A program made the position numbers and the translations under genes. A stretch of 56,132 nt of DNA from a virus (Duplodnaviria > Caudoviricetes), in the IMG/VR virus record IMGVR_UViG_3300049491_000181, positions 1 to 56,132 of that record. One strand, 5' to 3'. The notes under the pieces are model-generated. The model did no database searches. It saw only the letters and a program-made list of their open reading frames with translations, and was not told the DNA's origin. Shown here in pieces: positions 133 through 16,990 of this stretch (positions within the stretch are counted from its first letter, which is position 1; every line of letters starts with the position of its first letter).

Positions 133-1325
133 AAAACGCCTTTGCCGAAGTGCTTGTGGCCCTCGGGGATGCCGGGGCGTTCAACGCGCTTACACAGGGG
201 TTGGCCGGCGTTACTGAAGTCATCAAGAGTGTGGCAATTGAGTTTGGGCTTTGGGGTAAGGTTGTCGGCCTGACGTATGACGCGATCAAAAGCGGCAACT
301 TCAGCGGCTTGGGCGACAAGATAAGCACGGAGATTGATAAGGCCGATCTTGCGTTCAAGGCGTTGGCCGCTAGTTCGGCGTCGGCCGGCACGGGCGTCAA
401 AAACTTCTCCTCCGGCGTCGCCGATGAATTCGGCGGCACTATCCAGATCACAGAGCAAACGACCAAGGTTATCACTCAGCTTTCGGAGGAGTCGAAGGCG
501 GCAAGCAAGATTCTGAGCGAGATGGGGCTGAACCCTGGCAAGCTGAAGGATCAAGTTTCAGACTTCCAACTTGCCCTTATCAATCTTGTCGAGTTGAGCG
601 GCGTTGCGGCCAATCAGATTCTCAACGCCTTCGATAAGGCGCTAAACACATCGAAGAATATCGAGGACATCAACCTAGTCGGTGATGCCCTGGCCACGGC
701 ATTCACCAACGGCGATATCTCCGCCTCACAGTTCACTGACAAGGTCGGCGACCTCGCGAAGAAGCAAACGGAGTTGATGAAGGCCATCGACCCGACCATC
801 AAGACGATGGCGCAGCAGAAGGCGGAGATGGACAAGGCCGCAGATGCCGCGTCCAAACTCGAACTTGAATACGCCAAGCTCAAGTCTGCCGAATTCATCA
901 AGGGCCTGGAGTTCAAAGCCCAGATCGACGTTGCCCAGATTCAGGCCGATGTGGAGAAGGTGAAGGCCGCTTTCGAGTCGATCAACAACACGATCACCGT
1001 CACCACCGAAGCGACATCGGACCTGTTCAAGCTATTCGCAGAGAATGCGAACACATTGACTTTTTCGCAGCTGGCCGATATCAAGCAACAAATCGAATTC
1101 GAGAACAAGATCAAGCAAGAGGCTTTCGAGCTTCAGAAACAACTAGTGCAGGCGCAGATTGCCGCGATGACGGCGACCACTGCGAAGCTCTTAGCAGGCG
1201 ACGCGCTCATCAAGATCGACGGCGCCGGCTTGCAGCCGCAGCTGGAGGCGTTCATGTGGGAAGTGCTCAAGGCCATTCAAATCAAGGTGAATCAGGACGG
1301 GCTGAAACTCCTGCTGGGCGTCTGA
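7..1325 (+). CDS. Tape measure protein, C-terminal part (gene starts at 55268 and wraps; ~685 aa)
   Basis: In frame with the 55268 ATG across the overlap; Ala/Leu/Lys-rich helical sequence. Confidence 0.9.
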
Positions 1326-1326
1326 A

Positions 1327-1680
1327 ATGCTTAATACCCTTTCCACCATCGCCTACGATCCTGGCGGCTATGTCGAGCTTCAGGTCACGGAGGAAACCAC
1401 GCCCGGCGAAACGCGGCGCCGCGTGAACCGGGTTGCGACCCTGGACGGCAGCGCCGCGGTGAATGACGGCGGGTTCTCCGAAGCGGATCGGACGATTGAC
1501 CTCGCATGGATCAACAACGCGACGATCGACGCGCTGGTTGACCGCATGACGCAGTTCTACACACGCATCAACGTCTCCACTCGCGCAGGGGTCTTCCGCG
1601 CTGTCCCTGAAGTGTTTACGCCGGGCGGCACTGGTGAGTCACGGTTGCGCCTGCTTGTCATCTCCAAACTTTCCGTATGA
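1327..1680 (+). CDS. Putative distal tail protein (117 aa)
   Basis: Immediately follows the tape measure gene; RRVNRVATLDG motif typical of small Dit-like proteins. Confidence 0.6.
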   Translation: MLNTLSTIAYDPGGYVELQVTEETTPGETRRRVNRVATLDGSAAVNDGGFSEADRTIDLAWINNATIDALVDRMTQFYTRINVSTRAGVFRAVPEVFTPGGTGESRLRLLVISKLSV

Positions 1681-1687
1681 GGCGCAC

Positions 1688-2074
1688 ATGACCGTCCCAC
1701 TTGTTCCAACTTGGCACGCCCAGGTGCTGATTGACGCCCACACGGCGCTCCTCGCGCTGGTTGATGCCGGCACCGCCGGATCAGTCAAGGTGCGCGACGC
1801 TGCCGATGTGCTTTTGGCGACCATCGTGCTAACCGATCCTGCCGGAACCGTTCACGGAACTACCGGACAACTGACGATCACCGACGCGGGGCCTGTAAAC
1901 GCCGTGGCCAGCGGGACTGCTGCATATGCTGAACTTTGTAGTTCGGCAGGCACGGTCTATCTGGCGTTGCCGGCGCAACAGGGCGTCGCGGCAGTCTCTG
2001 GCTACGCGGTTTTGAATACGTTGGTCATCGTGTCTGGCCTCCCCGTCGAGCTTATCAGCTTCACGATTGGATAA
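1688..2074 (+). CDS. Virion/tail structural protein (128 aa)
   Basis: ATG 1688 after GAGG; Ala/Gly/Thr-rich beta protein in the tail module. Confidence 0.6.
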   Translation: MTVPLVPTWHAQVLIDAHTALLALVDAGTAGSVKVRDAADVLLATIVLTDPAGTVHGTTGQLTITDAGPVNAVASGTAAYAELCSSAGTVYLALPAQQGVAAVSGYAVLNTLVIVSGLPVELISFTIG

Positions 2075-3019: not shown

Positions 3020-3337
3020 ATGGCTGCGCTTGGCGCCGTAGGCCAGCAAGGATCGCCGGACGATCTGAGCATGAGCATGTTCACGATCACCGTCGCGTTG
3101 CCGGCTGCAACATTATCGATCAGCGGCGTTATCTACGATGACACCGCAACCGTGGCGGAGCGCGTTGTACGGGCCTATCGACGTTCGGATGGGGTCTTGC
3201 TTGGCGAAGACACGAGCAACGCCGGGACGGGCGCCTACAGCATCGCGCTCCCACCGGGGGAGGTGTACCGGGTGGTCCTGGACGATTCGGCAGGGACGCT
3301 TTACAATGACCTGATAGACCGGGTCATTCCGGCTTGA
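3020..3337 (+). CDS. Tail-associated protein (105 aa)
   Basis: Coupled to the previous gene; RVVRAYRRSDG..LG...S motif seen in tail accessory proteins. Confidence 0.6.
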   Translation: MAALGAVGQQGSPDDLSMSMFTITVALPAATLSISGVIYDDTATVAERVVRAYRRSDGVLLGEDTSNAGTGAYSIALPPGEVYRVVLDDSAGTLYNDLIDRVIPA

Positions 3338-9329: not shown

Positions 9330-9814
9330 AGTTGAATACTCCCTCTGAACTCGAACACACTTGGCACACGGGCGCGCATCCGCTGCTTGTATTCCTTTTG
9401 CCGCACACGCGCCGATTTCATCTTTACCGGTTTGGTCGGCGGTTCCAGCCCCATGACCGACCCGCCACGACGACCAGGGAACGAGCTGCGATGATCAACC
9501 CGGAACAGGAACCCGTTTTGCTTGAGGCGCGTCAACACCGCGCGCACAGCTTCAACGCCGGGGAAGTCCTCCACGAATTCGGCGTGTGTCATCGGCCCGT
9601 GGTCGCGGGTGTGGAGAAGCAACGTGTGAGCCAGCGTGCCGAATTTCAGGAACCCGGATTCAAGGCCTAACCTGATGTCGCCGGTTTTCCTCGGGGGTCG
9701 CTTGGCGGCCATTGAACAGGCCACGCACTTGCGGTTGGACACGTACCGCACAACGCTCCCACATCGCCGGCACTCAAGGCCGTTTTTGCGTTCACCCTCG
9801 CCTCGCTTGGTCAT
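9326..9814 (-). CDS. Zn-finger plus winged-HTH-like DNA-binding protein (162 aa)
   Basis: CRRC..RYVSNRKCVAC; VRAVLTRLKQNGFL; ATGA overlap with the polA stop. Confidence 0.55.
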   Translation of the reverse strand: MTKRGEGERKNGLECRRCGSVVRYVSNRKCVACSMAAKRPPRKTGDIRLGLESGFLKFGTLAHTLLLHTRDHGPMTHAEFVEDFPGVEAVRAVLTRLKQNGFLFRVDHRSSFPGRRGGSVMGLEPPTKPVKMKSARVRQKEYKQRMRARVPSVFEFRGSIQL

Positions 9815-11832
9815 ACGCACGCCCCCCAATTAATCCCGGTTGATTGTTCTGCGATGACCGGCACACGCAGTTTCAAGCATGTGTCCATGATGTGCTTGAC
9901 CTCGTTCAACGCTTCGGCGCCTTCGGCCGTCTGGGGTGTGCTGTGACCGGTTTCGTCGTGGCAGGTCAGCAGCATGTGCCCGAGTGTGCGGTGAATCCCC
10001 GTCTTCCACATGGCCGACATCGCAACCTTCATCAAATCGGCGGCGCTGCCTTGCAGTAGTCGATTCAGTGCCTTGTGTGTGAATGCACGCACGACCCTGC
10101 CGTTGTAAGCATCAATGGCCCGGTCATACGGGAGCGCCTTGTTTTTCTTTTCGTCGTCGCTCTTGAAGCGGGGTTCCCACAGTTCAAACCTGGCACGGCG
10201 ACCTAGCACGGTCTTGATCCATCCCCGGTCTCGCGCCATCTCGCTGACGCTGTCATAGGTCTTTTTCACGAACGGCACCGCAGTGTGATACGTGCGGAAT
10301 AGTTCAGAGCCATCATCCTTGCTCAAACCAAGATCATTGGCGAGCTTGGTCTGGCCCATACCGTAGGTTAAACCGAAGTTGATGTTTTTGATCGGCTTGC
10401 GGTGTTGCTTGTGAAGCTCGGGCGTGCTGATGTCCCAACCGGCCACCGGTGCGACCATTCCAAGCGTCATCTCATGGAAGTCCGTGTTGGGGTCTTCGTT
10501 GTACTGCTGGCGCACGATGTTCCCAGACGGCCCGCGCGCGTAGTGTGCCAGAAACCGGTATTCAATCTGCGACCAATCATGGCGGCCCCAAAGTTCCCCA
10601 TCTTCAGGCAGGAACAACGCCCGCAGCTTCGGCCCCCATACCGGGTCCCGTACCGGGATATTCTGGAGGTTGGGGAGCGACGAGGAGAACCGGCCGGAGA
10701 CCGTGCCGTTGTCGTCGCCCTTGAGCGGGTGAAACAGGGCATGCAAACGGCCATTGACATGCAGGTCCAAGACGTAGCCCCGCACGAACGTGTCGCGGTA
10801 CTTTGCCAGCTTGCGGCGTTCAACGATCAGCTGCGCCACTGGATGACTGCACCGTTCGAGGAATTCTTTTGCGAATGATGGTTGGCCGGTCGGGGTCCGT
10901 GGGAACTCCACACCGGCTGCTTTGAACAGGCGTTCGAGGTCACCTTTGGCGGTGGTTGAGATTGGGCGCCCGGCCACACCGGCAATGCGGGCGTCGATCA
11001 GGTCAATTGCTGCCGTAAGCTCATCGTCCAACCGCTTCGCATATTCCACATCGACACGCACACCGCGTTGGCGCATGTGAACTAGCGGTTCAATCAAACT
11101 CGTTTCCAGATCGAACAGGCTCGAAAGGTCTTGCTCTGCAAGCAATGCTTTTTGCTTCTCCCACACAAGCAGAGGGCCGTCAACGTCCCCCTGCGCATAT
11201 GGCCCAACCAAACACGGCGGAGCGCGCCAGATGTTTGCGCGGTACGTATCAACGTCACCATATGCCCGGATCAGCCATTCCTGCAAAGCGTCCTTCACTT
11301 TGCCGGTACCCATGTAGTCGCGCATCAGGGCTTGCAGGTTGTACGTGAAGCGGTTTTCATCGAGCAACGCTTCGGCAAACTGTACGTCGATGAATGGCCC
11401 CGTGACCGGCACGCCCTCCGACCAAAGCGCATCTACGTCATACATCAGGTTGGCGCCTACTTTGGTCTGCCCGGGCGTGCAGAGATTGTCGCGCGCCCAG
11501 GCAAGAACATGGCCCGGGTCGAGGTTCTGCTCTGGGGCAATCGTGTGGCGCATCGGGAAGTACCACCGATCACCCTCGGGTGTACCTACGGCAATGCCGA
11601 CGATGTGCGCCCCATCATCGCCGTCGCGCCGGAACCCTGGCCCTTTGGTGGTTAGCGCCGTGTCCTTGGTCTCGGTATCGAGGCCAAGGACACGGCACTC
11701 AGCAAGTCTAGGGAATTCCGTAGGTGCAACCCATCCGTTCTCAGGAATGGGCGGAATGGGTCGAGCATAGACAGACCGCCCCGCCCGCGTCTGGAGGTCT
11801 TCCCAAAAGAAGCCGAGTGCGTCATCGCGCAT
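9811..11832 (-). CDS. polA: Family A DNA polymerase with 3'-5' exonuclease domain (673 aa)
   Basis: ExoI LDTET; GRFSSSLPNLQNIP; motif A DWSQIEYR; motif B KNINFGLTYG; motif C HDE. Confidence 0.95.
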   Translation of the reverse strand: MRDDALGFFWEDLQTRAGRSVYARPIPPIPENGWVAPTEFPRLAECRVLGLDTETKDTALTTKGPGFRRDGDDGAHIVGIAVGTPEGDRWYFPMRHTIAPEQNLDPGHVLAWARDNLCTPGQTKVGANLMYDVDALWSEGVPVTGPFIDVQFAEALLDENRFTYNLQALMRDYMGTGKVKDALQEWLIRAYGDVDTYRANIWRAPPCLVGPYAQGDVDGPLLVWEKQKALLAEQDLSSLFDLETSLIEPLVHMRQRGVRVDVEYAKRLDDELTAAIDLIDARIAGVAGRPISTTAKGDLERLFKAAGVEFPRTPTGQPSFAKEFLERCSHPVAQLIVERRKLAKYRDTFVRGYVLDLHVNGRLHALFHPLKGDDNGTVSGRFSSSLPNLQNIPVRDPVWGPKLRALFLPEDGELWGRHDWSQIEYRFLAHYARGPSGNIVRQQYNEDPNTDFHEMTLGMVAPVAGWDISTPELHKQHRKPIKNINFGLTYGMGQTKLANDLGLSKDDGSELFRTYHTAVPFVKKTYDSVSEMARDRGWIKTVLGRRARFELWEPRFKSDDEKKNKALPYDRAIDAYNGRVVRAFTHKALNRLLQGSAADLMKVAMSAMWKTGIHRTLGHMLLTCHDETGHSTPQTAEGAEALNEVKHIMDTCLKLRVPVIAEQSTGINWGACV

Positions 11833-12053
11833 TTCACGAGCCGCAGCCGATCAACGCGTCGATGTAGTCAATGGCGTTTGGCCACCCCATTCTGCGATCA
11901 TCGCTCATGATTTCCCTCCTACAAAAGCTGCAAAAGCTGCTAACACACTAAACACGGCGCTGATGGCCGCCCCAACTGCGAAAAATAGCGCCATTGTTTC
12001 AGTGCTGCTGCCAACTGAGCATGCCAAGCAACCCCATGTCGCTACATCAAAAC

Positions 12054-12077
12054 GGCTATGCGGATTAACTTGTGGAA
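12054..12077. repeat. ISL3 terminal inverted repeat (transposase 3' end; contains its stop codon)
   Basis: GGCT-start ISL3-type end next to the TSD. Confidence 0.9.
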
Positions 12078-13489
12078 CGGCCATGCGTGTGAGTGAGTGC
12101 GCTCGTGTGGAATCGCTCGTGGCAGGGACGGCATACGACCATGACCTTTCTGTGCTCCCCGGCCACCAAGGGCAGGGTCTGGTGTATCTGCAGCTCGGCG
12201 GGCTCGAAGACACCGCCACAGGACTGGCAACGGTTTCCGGCCGCTGCGATGGCGTGCCGCCGCTCCATCTGGCTGATGCGTCTGGTCGGGTCCATCTTCA
12301 GAGGCTCCGGGGTTGGGGCCTGCTGGGGCGGCAACCCCTTGCCGAACAGCAGGCGGGCGCGCAGCACGTCGAAGCTGTAGCCCCGGCCGGCACGGTTGAT
12401 GGTCTTGGCGACCCCGTTCAGTGCTTCGGTGTAGGCGTTGCTGATGGGGTGGTCGAAGTACGCCAGAATTTCCCGGCGCCAGTTCTTCATGCTGGTGGTC
12501 AGCACCTTGAAGTCGGCCTTCAGGTCGGCCGGGATGGTGGCGGCGAAGCCGTCATAGGCGGCGACGGCCTGGGCCTTGGGCATGTCGTAGATGCCGTAGA
12601 ACGCTTCCTTCAGCCCGTGGGCGGCCTTCAGGGTCGGCTCGTTGTCCAGCCACATGTCCACGTTGAACCGCTGCTTCTCGGTCAGCTTGCCGTAGCGCAT
12701 GTTCAGCAGGGCCTTGGAGCGCAGCCAGTCCCGGCGCTCGCCCGACTTCTTGACCTTCTGCAGCCGGATGCGGACCCGCTCCATGCAGTAGCTGGCCGTC
12801 CTGACGACGTGGAACTTGTCGATGACCACGGGCACGCCGGGCAGCATGTGCCGGGCCACGTCGCGGTAAGGGCGCCACATGTCGATGGCGACGCCCTGGA
12901 CGTGGCTGCGGTCCCGGTAGTGGTTCAACCAGGTGGTCAGCGTGCCTTTGTCACGCTCGGCCAGCATCTCGATGGGGCGGTGCGCGCCGATGTCGGTGAT
13001 GACGCAGCGCATCTTCCCGTCAATCTGCGTCTCGTCGATGCCCAGCCAGGCCGGCAGGGCGGGCCGGTAGCCAGCCCCGATGGCGGCGATGTGGTCGCCA
13101 GCCAGGCTCCGCACGGTCTTGTCGTCGCAGCCGATGTTGTCGGCGATGCGGACGAAGGTGTCCCGCAGGCACTGCTGCTTGATGAAGGCGGCGCAGCGCT
13201 CAGTCATGCGCATGTCCTCTTGGATGCCACCCATCGGCTGCAGGAACGTCTCCCCGCACTCCCGGCACTTGTACCGCCGCACCCTGGCAAGGATGCGGGT
13301 GGCGTGCCCACGGATGGGGCTGTCGCGGAACGTGGTGAGCTTGGTGCCGTGCTTGTACAGACGGTCCAGCACGCCGCACTTCTGGCAGGCGGCCGGCTGA
13401 ACGGTGTACTCGGCTTCCAGTTCGTACTCCGCGCCGTCGAGGCGCTTCCCCAGGACGGTCCAGCCTGGCAGGTCGAGGATGTCGGTCAT
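12065..13489 (-). CDS. ISL3-family DDE transposase with C-terminal degenerate HNH/Zn-finger domain (474 aa)
   Basis: N-terminal zinc finger CQKC...CREC; LGIDET, VAIDMWRPY, IDKFHV and SNAYTEALN motifs; tail CQSCG..LQIHQTLP...VCRPCH. Confidence 0.92.
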   Translation of the reverse strand: MTDILDLPGWTVLGKRLDGAEYELEAEYTVQPAACQKCGVLDRLYKHGTKLTTFRDSPIRGHATRILARVRRYKCRECGETFLQPMGGIQEDMRMTERCAAFIKQQCLRDTFVRIADNIGCDDKTVRSLAGDHIAAIGAGYRPALPAWLGIDETQIDGKMRCVITDIGAHRPIEMLAERDKGTLTTWLNHYRDRSHVQGVAIDMWRPYRDVARHMLPGVPVVIDKFHVVRTASYCMERVRIRLQKVKKSGERRDWLRSKALLNMRYGKLTEKQRFNVDMWLDNEPTLKAAHGLKEAFYGIYDMPKAQAVAAYDGFAATIPADLKADFKVLTTSMKNWRREILAYFDHPISNAYTEALNGVAKTINRAGRGYSFDVLRARLLFGKGLPPQQAPTPEPLKMDPTRRISQMERRHAIAAAGNRCQSCGGVFEPAELQIHQTLPLVAGEHRKVMVVCRPCHERFHTSALTHTHGRSTS

Positions 13490-13852
13490 TCACGAATTGT
13501 CCGGCGCCACAAGCGCCTGCCTGATGGCATCCTTCCAGCTCTCCCTGACGTGCGTCGCTGGAGCTTCCAGCATGCGGCGCAGAAGCTGATGCAGGCGGTC
13601 AATCTCCACCGAGGAGTTGATTGAATGCCGACGCAGGTCTTCGTACCCGGCATGCTTCGCGTCCAGCGCTGCTCGGAGCAGCTTGGACTCGACCTCGGCC
13701 GCGATTGCCCGCCGATAGAGTTCAGGGTCCATCGTCATATTCACCTTTATGGCGTACAGCTCGGGCTCGTCATCCGGCAGCCGCACAGACTCTGGGCAAT
13801 CGCATGTGTCACACATGCCGTCGCACTTTCGGGTGTGTTGGTGGTAGCTCAT
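13490..13852 (-). CDS. Transposon passenger protein (120 aa)
   Basis: CDGMCDTCDC N-terminus and coiled coil; its stop abuts the transposase ATG. Confidence 0.6.
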   Translation of the reverse strand: MSYHQHTRKCDGMCDTCDCPESVRLPDDEPELYAIKVNMTMDPELYRRAIAAEVESKLLRAALDAKHAGYEDLRRHSINSSVEIDRLHQLLRRMLEAPATHVRESWKDAIRQALVAPDNS

Positions 13853-14085
13853 GCTTCGTAGTCTGTGCAGTCATCGCAGCCGTTGCAGCCGTCAGCGCAG
13901 CGCCACAGGTCGCCCAGGCGCCCACCAGCCTTCACCACGCATGCGCGACCAGGACCGCGCCCGGCGCCATCGCATGTGCAAGGCTTGCGCGTATCAGCCG
14001 GCCCGACGCTCTGGTCAGGGTCGCCAGCTTCAGCCTCGCGCGCCGCATCAGCGCGAGCTTGTGATTCGGTGTGGCTCACCTTCAT
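13849..14085 (-). CDS. Transposon passenger protein, Cys-rich (78 aa)
   Basis: ATGA overlaps on both sides; CTC...C...CADGCNGCDDC. Confidence 0.55.
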   Translation of the reverse strand: MKVSHTESQARADAAREAEAGDPDQSVGPADTRKPCTCDGAGRGPGRACVVKAGGRLGDLWRCADGCNGCDDCTDYEA

Positions 14086-14504
14086 GCCGCGTCGCGCACT
14101 TCGCGGAACTCATCGCTCGGCGCCTGCTGCCGCAGTTGGCGGCCGAAGTCCAGCAGCCGCGCGTGCAGGTCGGGGCGGAAGGTGGCGAACACGTCACTGC
14201 AGTGCAGCACGTCCTTCAGCAGCGAAACCAGTTCGCGCTCGGGCTGCCCGGCGTCTTGCGGGGCGTTCGAGTGTGCTTGCCGCATGGCGCACCACATCTC
14301 TTTGGTTTCGTCCAGCGTGAGGCGGCGGCGCGTTGAGACCGAGTTTTCCCACAGCCACGTCTCAATGGTGCGCAGGGCTTGCGCGCCATGCTCTGACCGC
14401 ACGTTCAGGGTCTTTGCCGCTGGCGTTGCGGCGCGGCGCGGCAGCGGCTGAATCTCGACGGGCACTCGGCCAGCGCTGCGCGGGAATGGGGAATTGGTTC
14501 GCAT
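14082..14504 (-). CDS. Transposon passenger protein (140 aa)
   Basis: GGAG RBS; ATGA coupling downstream. Confidence 0.55.
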   Translation of the reverse strand: MRTNSPFPRSAGRVPVEIQPLPRRAATPAAKTLNVRSEHGAQALRTIETWLWENSVSTRRRLTLDETKEMWCAMRQAHSNAPQDAGQPERELVSLLKDVLHCSDVFATFRPDLHARLLDFGRQLRQQAPSDEFREVRDAA

Positions 14505-14516
14505 GTCGTTCTCCGT

Positions 14517-14747
14517 TTAGGTTGCCTTGCGTGCCCAGACCGCTGGGCAATGCACGTTGTGCGTCATGTCGGCGGCATCGTCTAAGCGCGCCCAACCACT
14601 CCACCGCATGCTCATCCAGTTACCGCAGGCCGGGCACACGACACGGCCGGGGCCGTTTTCTTCGTGCTCGTCCACGGGCTCAATCTTTGCCAGCATCTCA
14701 AGTACGGCGCGCGGCATCGCCACTGCAGCCCAGTCTTGTTTTTCCAT
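14517..14747 (-). CDS. Transposon passenger protein, putative Zn-binding (76 aa)
   Basis: TGATG coupling; CPACG...HNVHCP motif common in small phage proteins. Confidence 0.6.
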   Translation of the reverse strand: MEKQDWAAVAMPRAVLEMLAKIEPVDEHEENGPGRVVCPACGNWMSMRWSGWARLDDAADMTHNVHCPAVWARKAT

Positions 14748-14920
14748 CACTGCTGCCCCGCTGCCATCGCAATCATGCGGTCTTGCCACGCCCGCTCAGC
14801 GGCGCGGTCGGCGGCCGGGTCGCGGGCCTTCGCCTGCTGCCCCACGTACTCGGTTTGCTGGAACGGGGTGCGCTGCTGCTTGTTGGCAATCAGGCGGTCA
14901 ATGGCTTGGGCTTGGTTCAT
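14747..14920 (-). CDS. Transposon passenger protein (57 aa)
   Basis: GGAAAG RBS; first gene inside the TIR. Confidence 0.55.
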   Translation of the reverse strand: MNQAQAIDRLIANKQQRTPFQQTEYVGQQAKARDPAADRAAERAWQDRMIAMAAGQQ

Positions 14921-14974
14921 GGTGTCGCTTTCCACACGTTATTCCGTTCTTTGACTATAGAGCAACCTCATGGA

Positions 14975-14998
14975 TTCCACAAGTTATTCCGGAGAGCC
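14975..14998. repeat. ISL3 terminal inverted repeat (upstream end)
   Basis: TTCCACAAGTTATTCCGGAGAGCC followed by the TSD; subterminal 16/17 copy at 14930-14946. Confidence 0.9.
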
Positions 14999-15021
14999 AT
15001 CAAAACGTGTTGCCGTGTTGT

Positions 15022-15993
15022 TCACCGCAGACCCCCAAACACGCCGACAAGATCACCCGACCGAAATGCGTGTGTATCTCGCCGGGGTGTATGCCACTGT
15101 ATATCCGAAGCGTTTGCGAACACAAGCGAGGCGGTGCGCGCGTTGACCTTGCCGGATTCAGGGAGCGGCGCGAGGTCCGATGCCACGAGTGAATCATCTT
15201 CCAGGCACAGGCTGTTGTCTTTGAAGATGACCGCGGGGTGGCGGAGGTCGGCCAGTTTTGCCGCAACATCAAGCATTGATCGCAGATCAGTGTTTGCTGT
15301 CTCCCACAAATCAGGTAGCCCATCAACCAACCCGTCCACGGTATCGGTCGGCCACTTCCCAGCAACCAACTGGCACCGCACCCAGATGTCACCCTCCAGA
15401 AAGAACGTTGCCGATTGGTCATCGACGGCGATGCTATCAATGGCCCCGCAACTCAGGATCGCTTCAACCGAAGCACCGGGCAGGTTTATGGATTGCTCGA
15501 TCAGCGTGTGAACCGTCACCCGGGCCACGATCACGTTATTGGTGGCGTAAACATGGTGCGCGTTGACACAGATGGCGGTCGCCCACGGGCGGCTGGCGTC
15601 GGTCGCCACAAACGGCAGCAGCTGGAGTAGTGCGTTGGCGAGTCCAGCGGCGCCGTGGGGCGTTTTCTCAGTGGGCCCGGTACGTGGGTACTGCCCCGGG
15701 TCCAGCAACGCGATTTTGGCGCGTATCCGCCCGGCGTTGACGACCAATCGCTGCCCGTCATCGCCCACCTTGACGGTAGGCGCCACCGGGCAGGCGTTCC
15801 ACACCGCCAACAGTCGATCAGCATTCACCAGGCAAGGCGGGAGGTCAGTTGGCGCATCGACCGTGTATCGGCCATTCTGCGCCTGTATCCGGCGCCGCCC
15901 GGCAGTGTCATCGTACACAAGCAGGTTCGACAACACCGGGTTAAGGTTGCTCCCGGCGTGATCGACCAGGAACCGGATGGCTGCGGCTTCCAT
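15022..15993 (-). CDS. DNA polymerase beta-clamp-like processivity factor (323 aa)
   Basis: PVLSNLL, FVATDASRPWATAI, YATNNV and LVAGKWP resemble DnaN-like phage clamps; lies between dpdA and polA. Confidence 0.7.
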   Translation of the reverse strand: MEAAAIRFLVDHAGSNLNPVLSNLLVYDDTAGRRRIQAQNGRYTVDAPTDLPPCLVNADRLLAVWNACPVAPTVKVGDDGQRLVVNAGRIRAKIALLDPGQYPRTGPTEKTPHGAAGLANALLQLLPFVATDASRPWATAICVNAHHVYATNNVIVARVTVHTLIEQSINLPGASVEAILSCGAIDSIAVDDQSATFFLEGDIWVRCQLVAGKWPTDTVDGLVDGLPDLWETANTDLRSMLDVAAKLADLRHPAVIFKDNSLCLEDDSLVASDLAPLPESGKVNARTASLVFANASDIQWHTPRRDTHAFRSGDLVGVFGGLR

Positions 15994-15994
15994 A

Positions 15995-16918
15995 TCAAAA
16001 GAACGTCACAGCAGACCGCTTGAACACGGGCCGCAGCCCCTTGGCGTACTCTTTGAAGAATCGGATATTCCACTTGTCGCGCATGCCGTGCATCGTGCCG
16101 AGTAGTTCAGGATCGAAACCCTGTGCCCGGATGATCCCATCATAGTGTAATTGCGTGTGCGGGTCGAGGCTCCAATAAGACTGGTCCTCGTCGTGAACGC
16201 TTGATGACCGACGACTGATGGCGAATGATTTTGGCCGGCCGTCTGGCCGCCTTAGCAGGATGTTCCCGAAACGCCCGACCATTAGCCACGATGTTGAGTC
16301 AACACTGAACCACGGGTAACGCTCCATCAGTTCAAACGTGGTCAGGCCGAAGCCGTGAACCTTGACGCGGGCGCTACCGTCAGGCAGTGCGAGATACTTG
16401 TCCCAAATGTGGTCGAGCCAGTCAACGAGATAACCCGTGGTTTCGGGAACCATGCCGCCAAGAAAGATGTAGTCATAACCCTCGTCCAGATACTTGACGA
16501 GCCATGAGTCGTGATCCCGGGCGTGGTGTACCGGACACACACGCACCGGCAGCTTCAGTGACTCGAGGTACTTCTGATTATCGTAGCTGCCCTGTTCCTG
16601 ATTGCGCCCGATCACATCGACATTTGACGCAATCTCGAGGATGTCAGGGCGTTCGCAGATATACTCCGCGTAGGCGTCAAGGTCAACTTCGGCGCCGAGG
16701 GTGAACATCGAGAACGCGCCGGAGTCGAGAAAGATTTGGCACCTGGCTTTGCGTATTACATCATCGAGGTTCTGCTTGCGAATGTAGTGATATGACTCGA
16801 GGTGATACGGGTAGACCTCGGACGCCGTAGCGGCCACATTGGGGTTTACCGCGTCGGGGTCGCCCCAGCCGCTATGGAACTTGGCTGCGATGTAAATACG
16901 GAGGTCTTGCGGTTCCAT
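15995..16918 (-). CDS. dpdA: DpdA-like DNA 7-deazaguanine transglycosylase, TGT fold (307 aa)
   Basis: LESYHY, IFLDSGAFS, PVHH, LGGMV, VHGFG, YPWFSVDSTSW motifs; clustered with folE/queCDE. Confidence 0.8.
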   Translation of the reverse strand: MEPQDLRIYIAAKFHSGWGDPDAVNPNVAATASEVYPYHLESYHYIRKQNLDDVIRKARCQIFLDSGAFSMFTLGAEVDLDAYAEYICERPDILEIASNVDVIGRNQEQGSYDNQKYLESLKLPVRVCPVHHARDHDSWLVKYLDEGYDYIFLGGMVPETTGYLVDWLDHIWDKYLALPDGSARVKVHGFGLTTFELMERYPWFSVDSTSWLMVGRFGNILLRRPDGRPKSFAISRRSSSVHDEDQSYWSLDPHTQLHYDGIIRAQGFDPELLGTMHGMRDKWNIRFFKEYAKGLRPVFKRSAVTFF

Positions 16919-16990
16919 TTCACCCCCGCCCCCAACGATACGCAACGATCATCAACCACACGAAACAAGCAACCGCCCAGGTGATCGGGT

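Follow-up and report, generated by a model that had tools for sequence, protein, structure and literature searches.

What does a transposon about twice as long as its own transposase gene bring into a phage genome, and where did it find its passengers? The question is raised by a virus of the Caudoviricetes whose genome of 56,132 nucleotides (nt), IMG/VR virus record IMGVR_UViG_3300049491_000181, was analysed over its full length (hereafter ‘the window’, which is the whole of that record and is rated 99% complete). Between the genes for the clamp (the DNA polymerase processivity factor) and DNA polymerase A lies an insertion sequence (IS) of the ISL3 family, in which five small open reading frames (ORFs), orf1 to orf5, accompany the transposase gene. 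An initial annotation, made from the letters alone, had read this unit as a cargo-carrying transposon with phage-like genes, possibly from a lineage that shuttles anti-host or anti-defence cargo between phages. We consider it probable, and hold the view with good confidence, that the element is an ISL3 transposon with passengers and that it belongs to a clade in which a fixed frame encloses an exchangeable slot of phage accessory genes. The comparisons below establish its ends, its target duplication, its family, the architecture of the slot, the turnover of the cargo and the origin of that cargo outside IS.

Ends, family and insertion site

The element occupies 2,945 bp on the minus strand (12054-14998), of which the transposase gene accounts for 1,425 bp. 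Its two 24-nt terminal arms are identical at 21 of 24 positions, as seen both by reading the sequence and by repeat search (pair I2), and directly outside both arms stands a perfect, AT-rich duplication of 8 bp, ATCAAAAC. With up to three mismatches allowed, the end pattern occurs twice in the 56,132-bp window, against 0.00 occurrences expected from 100 shuffles; sequence, repeat search and shuffling thus agree with the inverted repeats and target duplication by which the initial annotation had delimited the unit. The termini have independent support because, in a contig from another study (run X4), homology to the transposase stops precisely at 12054, with unrelated sequence beyond. Both junctions are spanned by Logan contigs of run X1, possibly the source sample, and identical pieces of the phage and of the element are both present in runs X2 and X3, which come from a second sample. 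The element is present in the phage in a single copy. Its GC content (0.63-0.68) lies above that of the sequence beside it (0.56-0.61), and the GC content of third codon positions (GC3) reaches 0.91 in the transposase gene, as against 0.66-0.83 for the cargo and about 0.70 for the genes of the phage; because GC and GC3 differ from those of the carrier, the element appears to be of foreign origin.

Assignment to ISL3, which the initial annotation had made, is borne out by the protein: the transposase scores 183 bits against Pfam DDE_Tnp_ISL3 (cut-off 23) and matches Zn_ribbon_ISL3 at 4.2e-9, with HTH_Tnp_ISL3 at 18.4 bits, under its cut-off of 27.4. Together with GGCT-type ends of about 24 bp and an AT-rich duplication of 8 bp, a DDE transposase of this kind is what characterises the family. 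In plasmid and phage collections no nucleotide match to the element exceeded 72% identity.

Removal in silico of the element and one copy of the duplication yields an intergenic stretch between the clamp stop codon and an intact 29-residue ORF ahead of polA. In this phage of roughly 56 kb, the element would therefore have inserted into the intergenic stretch that separates the clamp gene from the polymerase gene, and it lies in the same orientation as these two genes. That polA and the clamp gene adjoin one another in the nearest known phages (about 50% amino acid identity in PolA) follows from a single match that covers both. The PolA search returned relatives only at about this identity, and no related phage for comparison of the locus was found by megablast of 11000-16000 against phages or by searching viral contigs with the clamp protein; nor, accordingly, was any related phage found in which the five ORFs lie at this locus outside the inverted repeats. 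Contigs were also examined for the empty site. They contained no joint that skips the element, a result that is uninformative either way.

A fixed frame around an exchangeable slot

Relatives were sought through the transposase and through the element’s DNA, the latter search returning, at a distance, a sole match in Burkholderia phage Bcep22. A transposase search of IMG/VR gave 10 loci, all 10 with end pairs, and a transposase profile found 46 further loci in bacterial genome contigs. We examined 36 of these 46, omitting L041, L053-L056 and L058-L062 (loci are denoted by L and a number), which were short, duplicate, partial or at most 38% identical over a partial match; GGCT-type end pairs were present at 21 of the 36, and perfect duplications in 13 of the 18 for which both flanks were available. 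The 28 elements delimited in this way include those of Bcep22, a Ralstonia plasmid, 10 viral contigs and 15 from bacterial genomes. Among the first 13, lengths range from 921 to 3,040 bp and nine have identical 8-bp duplications. Every one of the 28 carries cargo between its left end and its transposase gene, in a space no smaller than about 410 nt (the range is 410-1,437 nt for the 21 whose transposase start was located by script), and transposases of this type are consequently not confined to short IS devoid of cargo.

The frame persists as its contents change. Aligned by blastn with 12 relatives, the window’s element shows similarity in two places only, its first 70-85 nt and a stretch that starts about 12 nt ahead of the transposase ATG and extends through the right end; the slot between them is unrelated in every pair. 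With L004, whose transposase is 96% identical, the latter region has 93.9% identity over 1,451 nt, and the two elements have no cargo in common. A transposase tree of 27 sequences, drawn without the transposase remnants of L012 and L013 and without L022-L029 (taken from their length and ends as repeats of the L021 type), places L005, L006, L007 and L010 on branches of 0.004-0.012, with four unrelated cargos among them. Bcep22, the plasmid of Ralstonia insidiosa and L030 stand equally close to one another, carrying respectively two small ORFs, a DNA methyltransferase gene and a gene for a phrog_8970 protein; in the plasmid, which has the same frame, the methyltransferase gene overlaps the transposase start. 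A single type of cargo is retained only in a Pseudomonas subclade (L036, L038, L039), where a gene for a PAPS-reductase-like protein is found across three species. Contigs of run X4 mark the same borders: two part from the window’s sequence at the edge of the slot, at 13500 and 13507, and one is identical over 14478-14971 (orf1 and orf2) with different sequence below 14478. By these sequence comparisons, which pair near-identical transposases with unrelated passengers among homologous elements, the turnover of cargo is far faster than the divergence of the transposase, and for the same reason the cargo is not required for transposition.

What remains constant is largely a set of putative expression signals. 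The 28 aligned left ends share an order of terminal repeat, about 15 nt, a -10-like hexamer, about 8 nt, a subterminal repeat and, usually, AGG. The subterminal copy is kept in all 28, as is a hexamer whose second and sixth letters are A and T, and across the clade the first cargo ATG lies 8-12 nt past AGG; in the window AGG stands 8-9 nt before the ATG of orf1 at 14920. The right end has a subterminal repeat of its own, the core of which, CGTGTGGAA, lies where the transposase gene encodes the conserved RFHT motif near its C terminus and recurs at the same distance, about 50 nt, in most of the 28 right ends. On the transposase side the slot is closed in about half of the elements by the junction GACAATyCGTGA-ATG. 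Within the window’s element no terminator-like site was found on the minus strand, and Rfam had no match in 11500-15500.

From this arrangement we infer a -10 element between two transposase-binding repeats. The fixed frame consists of a left end with its putative signals, the variable slot, the short conserved junction, the transposase gene and a right end with a subterminal repeat. A left-end promoter would transcribe cargo and transposase as one operon, translation of the transposase would be coupled to that of the last cargo gene, orf5, and transposase bound at the two left repeats may repress the promoter from which it is itself expressed. Cargo would be exchanged, probably, by recombination at the conserved borders of the slot and inside mosaic genes. 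In L009, L020 and L021 the transposase ATG is preceded by the 20 nt TTCCACACGACAATCCGrGG, an inverted copy of the left subterminal repeat, and the cargo of these elements is consequently bracketed by inverted repeat copies; the junction in the window retains only GACAATTCG of that inverted repeat.

The relatives appear to be mobile: in a single Xenophilus genome, no two of the three copies have the same duplication, and a copy of the 96% type occurs in run X4 with another flank. At the viral loci, each of 10 flanking proteins has a PHROG match, the families including terminase, tail, RecT, helicase and integrase, and none of the other phage backbones shares a protein with the window’s phage. 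The supposition of a transposon lineage moving between phages accordingly stands in so far as members with differing cargo occur in phages, and has to be widened in so far as they also occur on a plasmid and in bacterial genome contigs.

Several observations on individual relatives may be recorded here. Two elements, L012 4475-5395 (921 bp) and L013 4145-5278 (1,134 bp), retain their cargo together with the duplication and both ends, and their transposase genes are internally deleted to in-frame remnants of 129 or 88 residues; both are likely to be non-autonomous cargo carriers. An element of 2,406 bp with equal ends recurs in L021-L029, in bins assigned to Xenophilus, Sphingobium, Acidovorax, Gemmatimonas, Chloroflexota and Cryosericum, a spread that, judged by equal length and ends, could reflect wide transfer or binning noise. 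DUF5131-like sequences lie in the flanks of three elements (L017 1577-1780, directly preceding the left end; L018 5522-5656; L019 7323-7457) and are 61-76% identical by tblastx to the cargo of L043; methyltransferase-like flanks occur at L010, L036 and L037. To judge from such neighbours, bacterial copies may sit in prophage-like DNA.

Origin and role of the passengers

The initial annotation had described five small ORFs leading directly into the transposase gene. This layout, which is tightly packed, holds with two start codons corrected, orf1 beginning at an ATG and not at the GTG at 14935. In all five, GC3 (0.66-0.83) exceeds the GC content of second codon positions (GC2, 0.41-0.62), and for that reason they fit coding sequence. 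Cysteines are clustered in three of them: orf2 has three with a histidine, orf4 has seven, and orf5 has four within residues 1-19.

Their homologues point away from IS. Full-length homologues of orf1 form 13 clusters at 70-93% identity, and those of orf2 form three, at 81-93% identity, each 19 residues longer than orf2. For orf3, 13 matches were found among 1.84 billion representatives, only one of them full-length; the others cover residues 1-38, 24-79 or 78-135, each module in a different set of proteins, and the C-terminal module is 80% identical to 3182-3316 of the phage contig L015. The C-terminal half of orf4 recurs in P0009 and P0010, fused there to an N-terminal module of the orf5 type. 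The 11 homologue clusters of orf5 have in common only this N-terminal module of 26 residues with four cysteines, the rest of the protein resembling L015 4689-4991 and L063 552-998. The module, YH.HT.KCDGMCD.C.CP, is nearly invariant at the head of small proteins of otherwise unrelated sequence; since its copies differ mostly at third codon positions, it is evidently conserved as protein.

Two phage contigs, L014 and L015, have neither an ISL3 end nor a transposase within the fetched stretches, and their small early-type genes include the N-terminal module and the C-terminal part of orf5, the C-terminal module of orf3 and a homologue of an L012 cargo gene. Homologues of orf1 likewise occur without an ISL3 end, in four metagenome contigs, where they lie behind a different conserved upstream region. 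In one of these, L063, orf1 is followed by orf2 (364-564, 92.5% identity) and an orf5-like gene, and at a greater distance comes a homologue of the gene with which the cargo of L006 ends; L063 has no IS end, and its resemblance to the window sets in 4 nt ahead of the orf1 start codon. Close relatives of orf1, orf3 and orf5 were not found in viral contigs, nor paralogues of the cargo elsewhere in the window’s phage. Because the homologues stand in clusters outside IS and the phage has no paralogue, the five ORFs are best understood as captured genes, with the capture border at the start codon. By these sequence comparisons the cargo originated outside IS, in phage early or accessory gene clusters, and the ‘phage early/accessory genes’ of the initial annotation prove an apt description for orf1, orf2, orf3 and orf5, whose homologues lie in phage or metagenome clusters free of IS ends.

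The region upstream of orf1 outside IS (L063 1-112; L064-L066) contains TTGCGT, a palindrome CGTGAG..CTCACG, a -10-like hexamer and GGAGA, and by eye it looks like a repressor-controlled early promoter. Beside the orf1 homologue of L066, two convergent ORFs (489-1722, minus strand) resemble Cas2 and Cas1, by eye only.

Across the clade, cargo that can be recognised is by its sequence of phage type (Table 1). PHROG matches were obtained for 13 of 20 cargo proteins from bacterial-genome elements and for none of the 10 small cargo proteins from viral contigs; when cargo was compared by tblastx with masked loci, the many short, low-scoring GC-rich matches were disregarded and those of high identity retained. 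The most likely reading is that the cargo is an accessory gene set serving the carrier replicon or cell, the benefit itself being something we infer.

Several results weigh against this account. The five ORFs match no family in Pfam, PHROG or PADLOC, and structure prediction, which the initial annotation had suggested for the cargo and which was run for orf3 and orf5, gave uninformative models: the mean pLDDT (the predicted local distance difference score of AlphaFold2) was 57 for orf3, and it was 72 for the model of orf5, in which one long helix spans 43-96. From the ESM Atlas came no usable match to orf3 and, for orf5, unnamed clusters only, at 0.90. Matching duplications are missing in four of the first 13 elements and in five of the 18 from bacterial genomes, and 15 of the 36 genome loci were not delimited by the script, so that close relatives lacking cargo could be hidden among them. 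Neither the empty site nor a second copy of the exact element at another site was seen; no X2 or X3 contig bridges a junction, and no contig joint skips the element. A simple sigma-70 scan calls no promoter in 11900-15200 and the candidate -35, TTGTGG, inside the terminal repeat, agrees with the consensus at three of six positions, so that the argument for a promoter comes from conservation. Finally, the recognisable cargo gene of L008 lies on the opposite strand, and a rule of one operon is therefore not universal.

A narrower possibility, which we entertain tentatively, is that the cargo consists of counter-defence or host-takeover genes, that the clade shuttles them and that the five ORFs are new inhibitors of host immunity. 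In four of the first 13 elements the slot is occupied by orphan DNA methyltransferases, a classical means of escape from restriction; five elements have phrog_424 (category ‘moron, auxiliary metabolic gene and host takeover’) and one has an anti-repressor. These methyltransferases, PAPS-reductase-like proteins and anti-repressor of sister elements suggest that the contents of the window’s slot may have a similar role. The carriers at the viral loci are real phages, as their flanking proteins attest, and the window’s ORFs, which are small, rare and mosaic, evolve fast and come from early clusters close to a promoter, have the profile usual for anti-defence genes. Set against this, no ORF of the window matches a known family, and PADLOC, in which none of 10 cargo proteins (five from the window and five from relatives) found a match, covers defence systems only; many cargo proteins of the clade are without an assigned function, methyltransferases have other roles too, and for several elements in bacterial contigs a phage context is not established. 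The idea in its strongest form is somewhat more doubtful still. It would make the Bcep22-type ISL3 clade a dedicated shuttle for phage accessory genes, with a promoter-equipped slot that takes up the leading genes of phage early operons from the start codon onwards, distributes them over unrelated phages, prophages and plasmids, and contains for the most part counter-defence or host-takeover genes, the five orphan ORFs of the window included.

It is rather unlikely that the cargo is neutral baggage, captured by accident and kept only by linkage to a selfish transposase. Such a view would accommodate the very fast turnover, with no cargo family kept across most of the clade, the 19 residues that orf2 has lost relative to its three homologues, the mosaic character of the cargo proteins and the persistence of cargo in L012 and L013 despite their deleted transposases. 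It sits poorly with cargo ORFs that in almost every element are intact, tightly spaced and kept in register with the Shine-Dalgarno-like site of the left end, with the excess of GC3 over GC2 in all five, with the full-length conservation of orf1 in 13 clusters and with the PAPS-reductase-like gene kept across the Pseudomonas subclade; random capture, moreover, would not fix the distance of the start codon from the repeat.

Were the small ORFs instead helpers or regulators of transposition itself (as inhibitors, target selectors or DNA-bending factors), their linkage to the transposase in one unit and their cysteine clusters, which could bind zinc and DNA, would find a ready explanation, but a transposase 96% identical (L004) and near-identical transposases in L005, L006, L007 and L010 travel with unrelated cargo, some elements carry a methyltransferase only and homologues of the ORFs occur without a transposase, which leaves this highly unlikely. 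That the five ORFs are ordinary phage genes caught between a solitary repeat and a short IS, as a chance composite or an assembly chimera, would suit the failure to recover an empty site and the homologues outside IS ends elsewhere, but it is largely refuted, with hardly any probability left to it, by a duplication that encloses the whole 2,945-bp unit with no end-like sequence between cargo and transposase, by the same frame with other cargo in 28 elements, by two independent contig sets that bridge or contain parts of it, by cargo with no paralogue in the phage and a GC content above the phage’s and by the adjacency of polA and clamp in the nearest phages.

Precedents, implications and the surrounding locus

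Passenger-carrying IS are known mainly for resistance, metal or metabolic genes. An element of the present type is nevertheless not unprecedented, since the record of Bcep22 already marks one: it labels two ‘putative insertion sequence boundary’ features around the transposase gp32 and the hypothetical proteins gp33 and gp34 (NC_005262 18217-20374). This putative IS belongs to the same clade, with 69% nucleotide identity over the transposase, and it resembles the window’s element in its 24-bp ends, subterminal repeat, -10-like hexamer, 8-bp duplication, passengers between left end and transposase and residence in a phage; it differs in its length of 2,158 bp, in having two passenger ORFs unrelated to the five and in lying in another type of phage at another site. 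IS are said to be rare in wild-type phage genomes, and Bcep22 is named among the few phages with one (PMC3091744).

Within the family, a second source (PMC6305408) describes ISPst2, an ISL3 element of 2,985 bp with an ArsR regulator and a permease, 24-bp ends and AT-rich duplications of 8 bp. ISPst2 and the window’s element are alike in holding passengers inside their ends, but the ends differ (GGGTATCCGG... versus GGCTCTCCGG...), and the passengers of ISPst2, as described there, are a regulator and a transporter fixed for the element, not the contents of a hypervariable slot of phage type. Locus L047, with ISPst2-like ends and 2.35 kb of cargo space, is a distant outgroup in the transposase tree. 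Table 3 of the same source lists ISArsp7, a passenger-free ISL3 element of 1,451 bp with GGCT-type ends and an 8-bp duplication; IS of that kind, on this description, have no passengers and only a short leader, unlike the window’s clade with its cargo space of at least about 410 nt. ISPst9 and ISRme5 were considered as related precedents and dismissed, ISRme5 being an IS481 element. An analogy, and only an analogy, may be drawn with the integron platform, which likewise combines conserved expression signals with variable promoterless genes in a fixed place. Unlike integrons, the window’s element has no tyrosine recombinase and no attI or attC, and the whole unit would move by a DDE transposase; no recombinase besides this transposase was found in it, and no repeated site between the cargo ORFs. 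In our search, which left subscription journals mostly outside, no publication came to light that describes a variable slot for phage genes in an ISL3 clade, nor any on ISL3 with PAPS reductase or on passenger-bearing ISL3 elements in bacteriophage genomes, and in a survey of Ralstonia transposable elements ISL3 appears in a table only.

The clade thus has a slot with putative expression signals built into the element, and this slot is filled from the phage accessory pool and renewed much faster than the transposase changes. If the cargo pays for the element’s stay, such elements would offer accessory genes a route between unrelated phages that does without homologous recombination, and the left end together with the transposase would serve as a genomic marker for candidate accessory or counter-defence genes. 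If the dedicated-shuttle reading is true, the slot could be mined as a marker for new counter-defence or host-takeover genes. Precise capture at the start codon raises, in addition, the question of how ISL3 elements acquire passengers.

Table 1. Features of the element and its neighbourhood in the window, with recognisable cargo of related elements
Feature	Location	Strand	Remarks
DNA polymerase A, flanking	9811..11832	-	Pfam DNA_pol_A 1e-62
Hydrophobic 29-aa ORF downstream of insertion, intact	11905..11994	-	Empty-site reconstruction
Target-site duplication, transposase-end copy	12046..12053	.	ATCAAAAC, identical to 14999-15006
IRR, transposase-proximal terminal inverted repeat	12054..12077	+	Overlaps last transposase codons
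ISL3-family DDE transposase, 474 aa	12065..13489	-	Pfam DDE_Tnp_ISL3 1e-53
Right subterminal repeat core CGTGTGGAA	12104..12112	+	51 nt in from end, inside RFHT codons
orf5, 120 aa, N-terminal 26-residue Cys4 module and long predicted helix	13490..13852	-	Stop directly abuts transposase ATG
26-residue Cys4 module, window copy	13775-13852	-	
26-residue Cys4 module, other copies	L014 5001-5078; L015 3788-3865; L016 1903-1962		
orf4, 78 aa, 7 Cys	13849..14085	-	ATGA overlap with orf5
orf3, 140 aa, three-module mosaic	14082..14504	-	ATGA overlap with orf4
orf2, 76 aa, CxxC...HC	14517..14747	-	Followed by 12-nt gap containing GGAGA before orf3
orf1, 57 aa, first slot gene	14747..14920	-	Stop shares 1 nt with orf2 start
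Subterminal copy of inner terminal repeat, then AGG (Shine-Dalgarno-like)	14930..14946	-	Repeat search D12
-10-like hexamer TATAGT between terminal and subterminal repeats, putative promoter	14954..14959	-	Conservation
IRL, cargo-end terminal inverted repeat	14975..14998	-	Pairs with 12054-12077
Target-site duplication, second copy	14999..15006	.	Sequence reading
Clamp (DNA polymerase processivity factor), flanking	15022..15993	-	phrog_947 1.4e-34; stop 16 nt from duplication
C5 DNA methylases	Cargo of L009, L013		
N6/N4 DNA methylases	Cargo of L011, Ralstonia plasmid		
DUF5131 / phrog_2045	Cargo of L043		DUF5131 1.4e-90
PAPS-reductase-like, phrog_424	Cargo of five elements		
Anti-repressor Ant	Cargo of L008	Opposite strand	4.8e-50
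Weak MazG-like and DUF551 matches	Cargo of L019, L034		

The carrier is a phage by its hallmark genes (large terminase, portal, primase, helicase, DNA polymerase A and clamp), and no tRNA genes were found in the window. Adjoining the clamp gene, at 15995-16945 on the minus strand, is a queuine tRNA-ribosyltransferase-like gene (phrog_887, 7.1e-51), which we take as a hint that the DNA of this phage carries a 7-deazaguanine modification.

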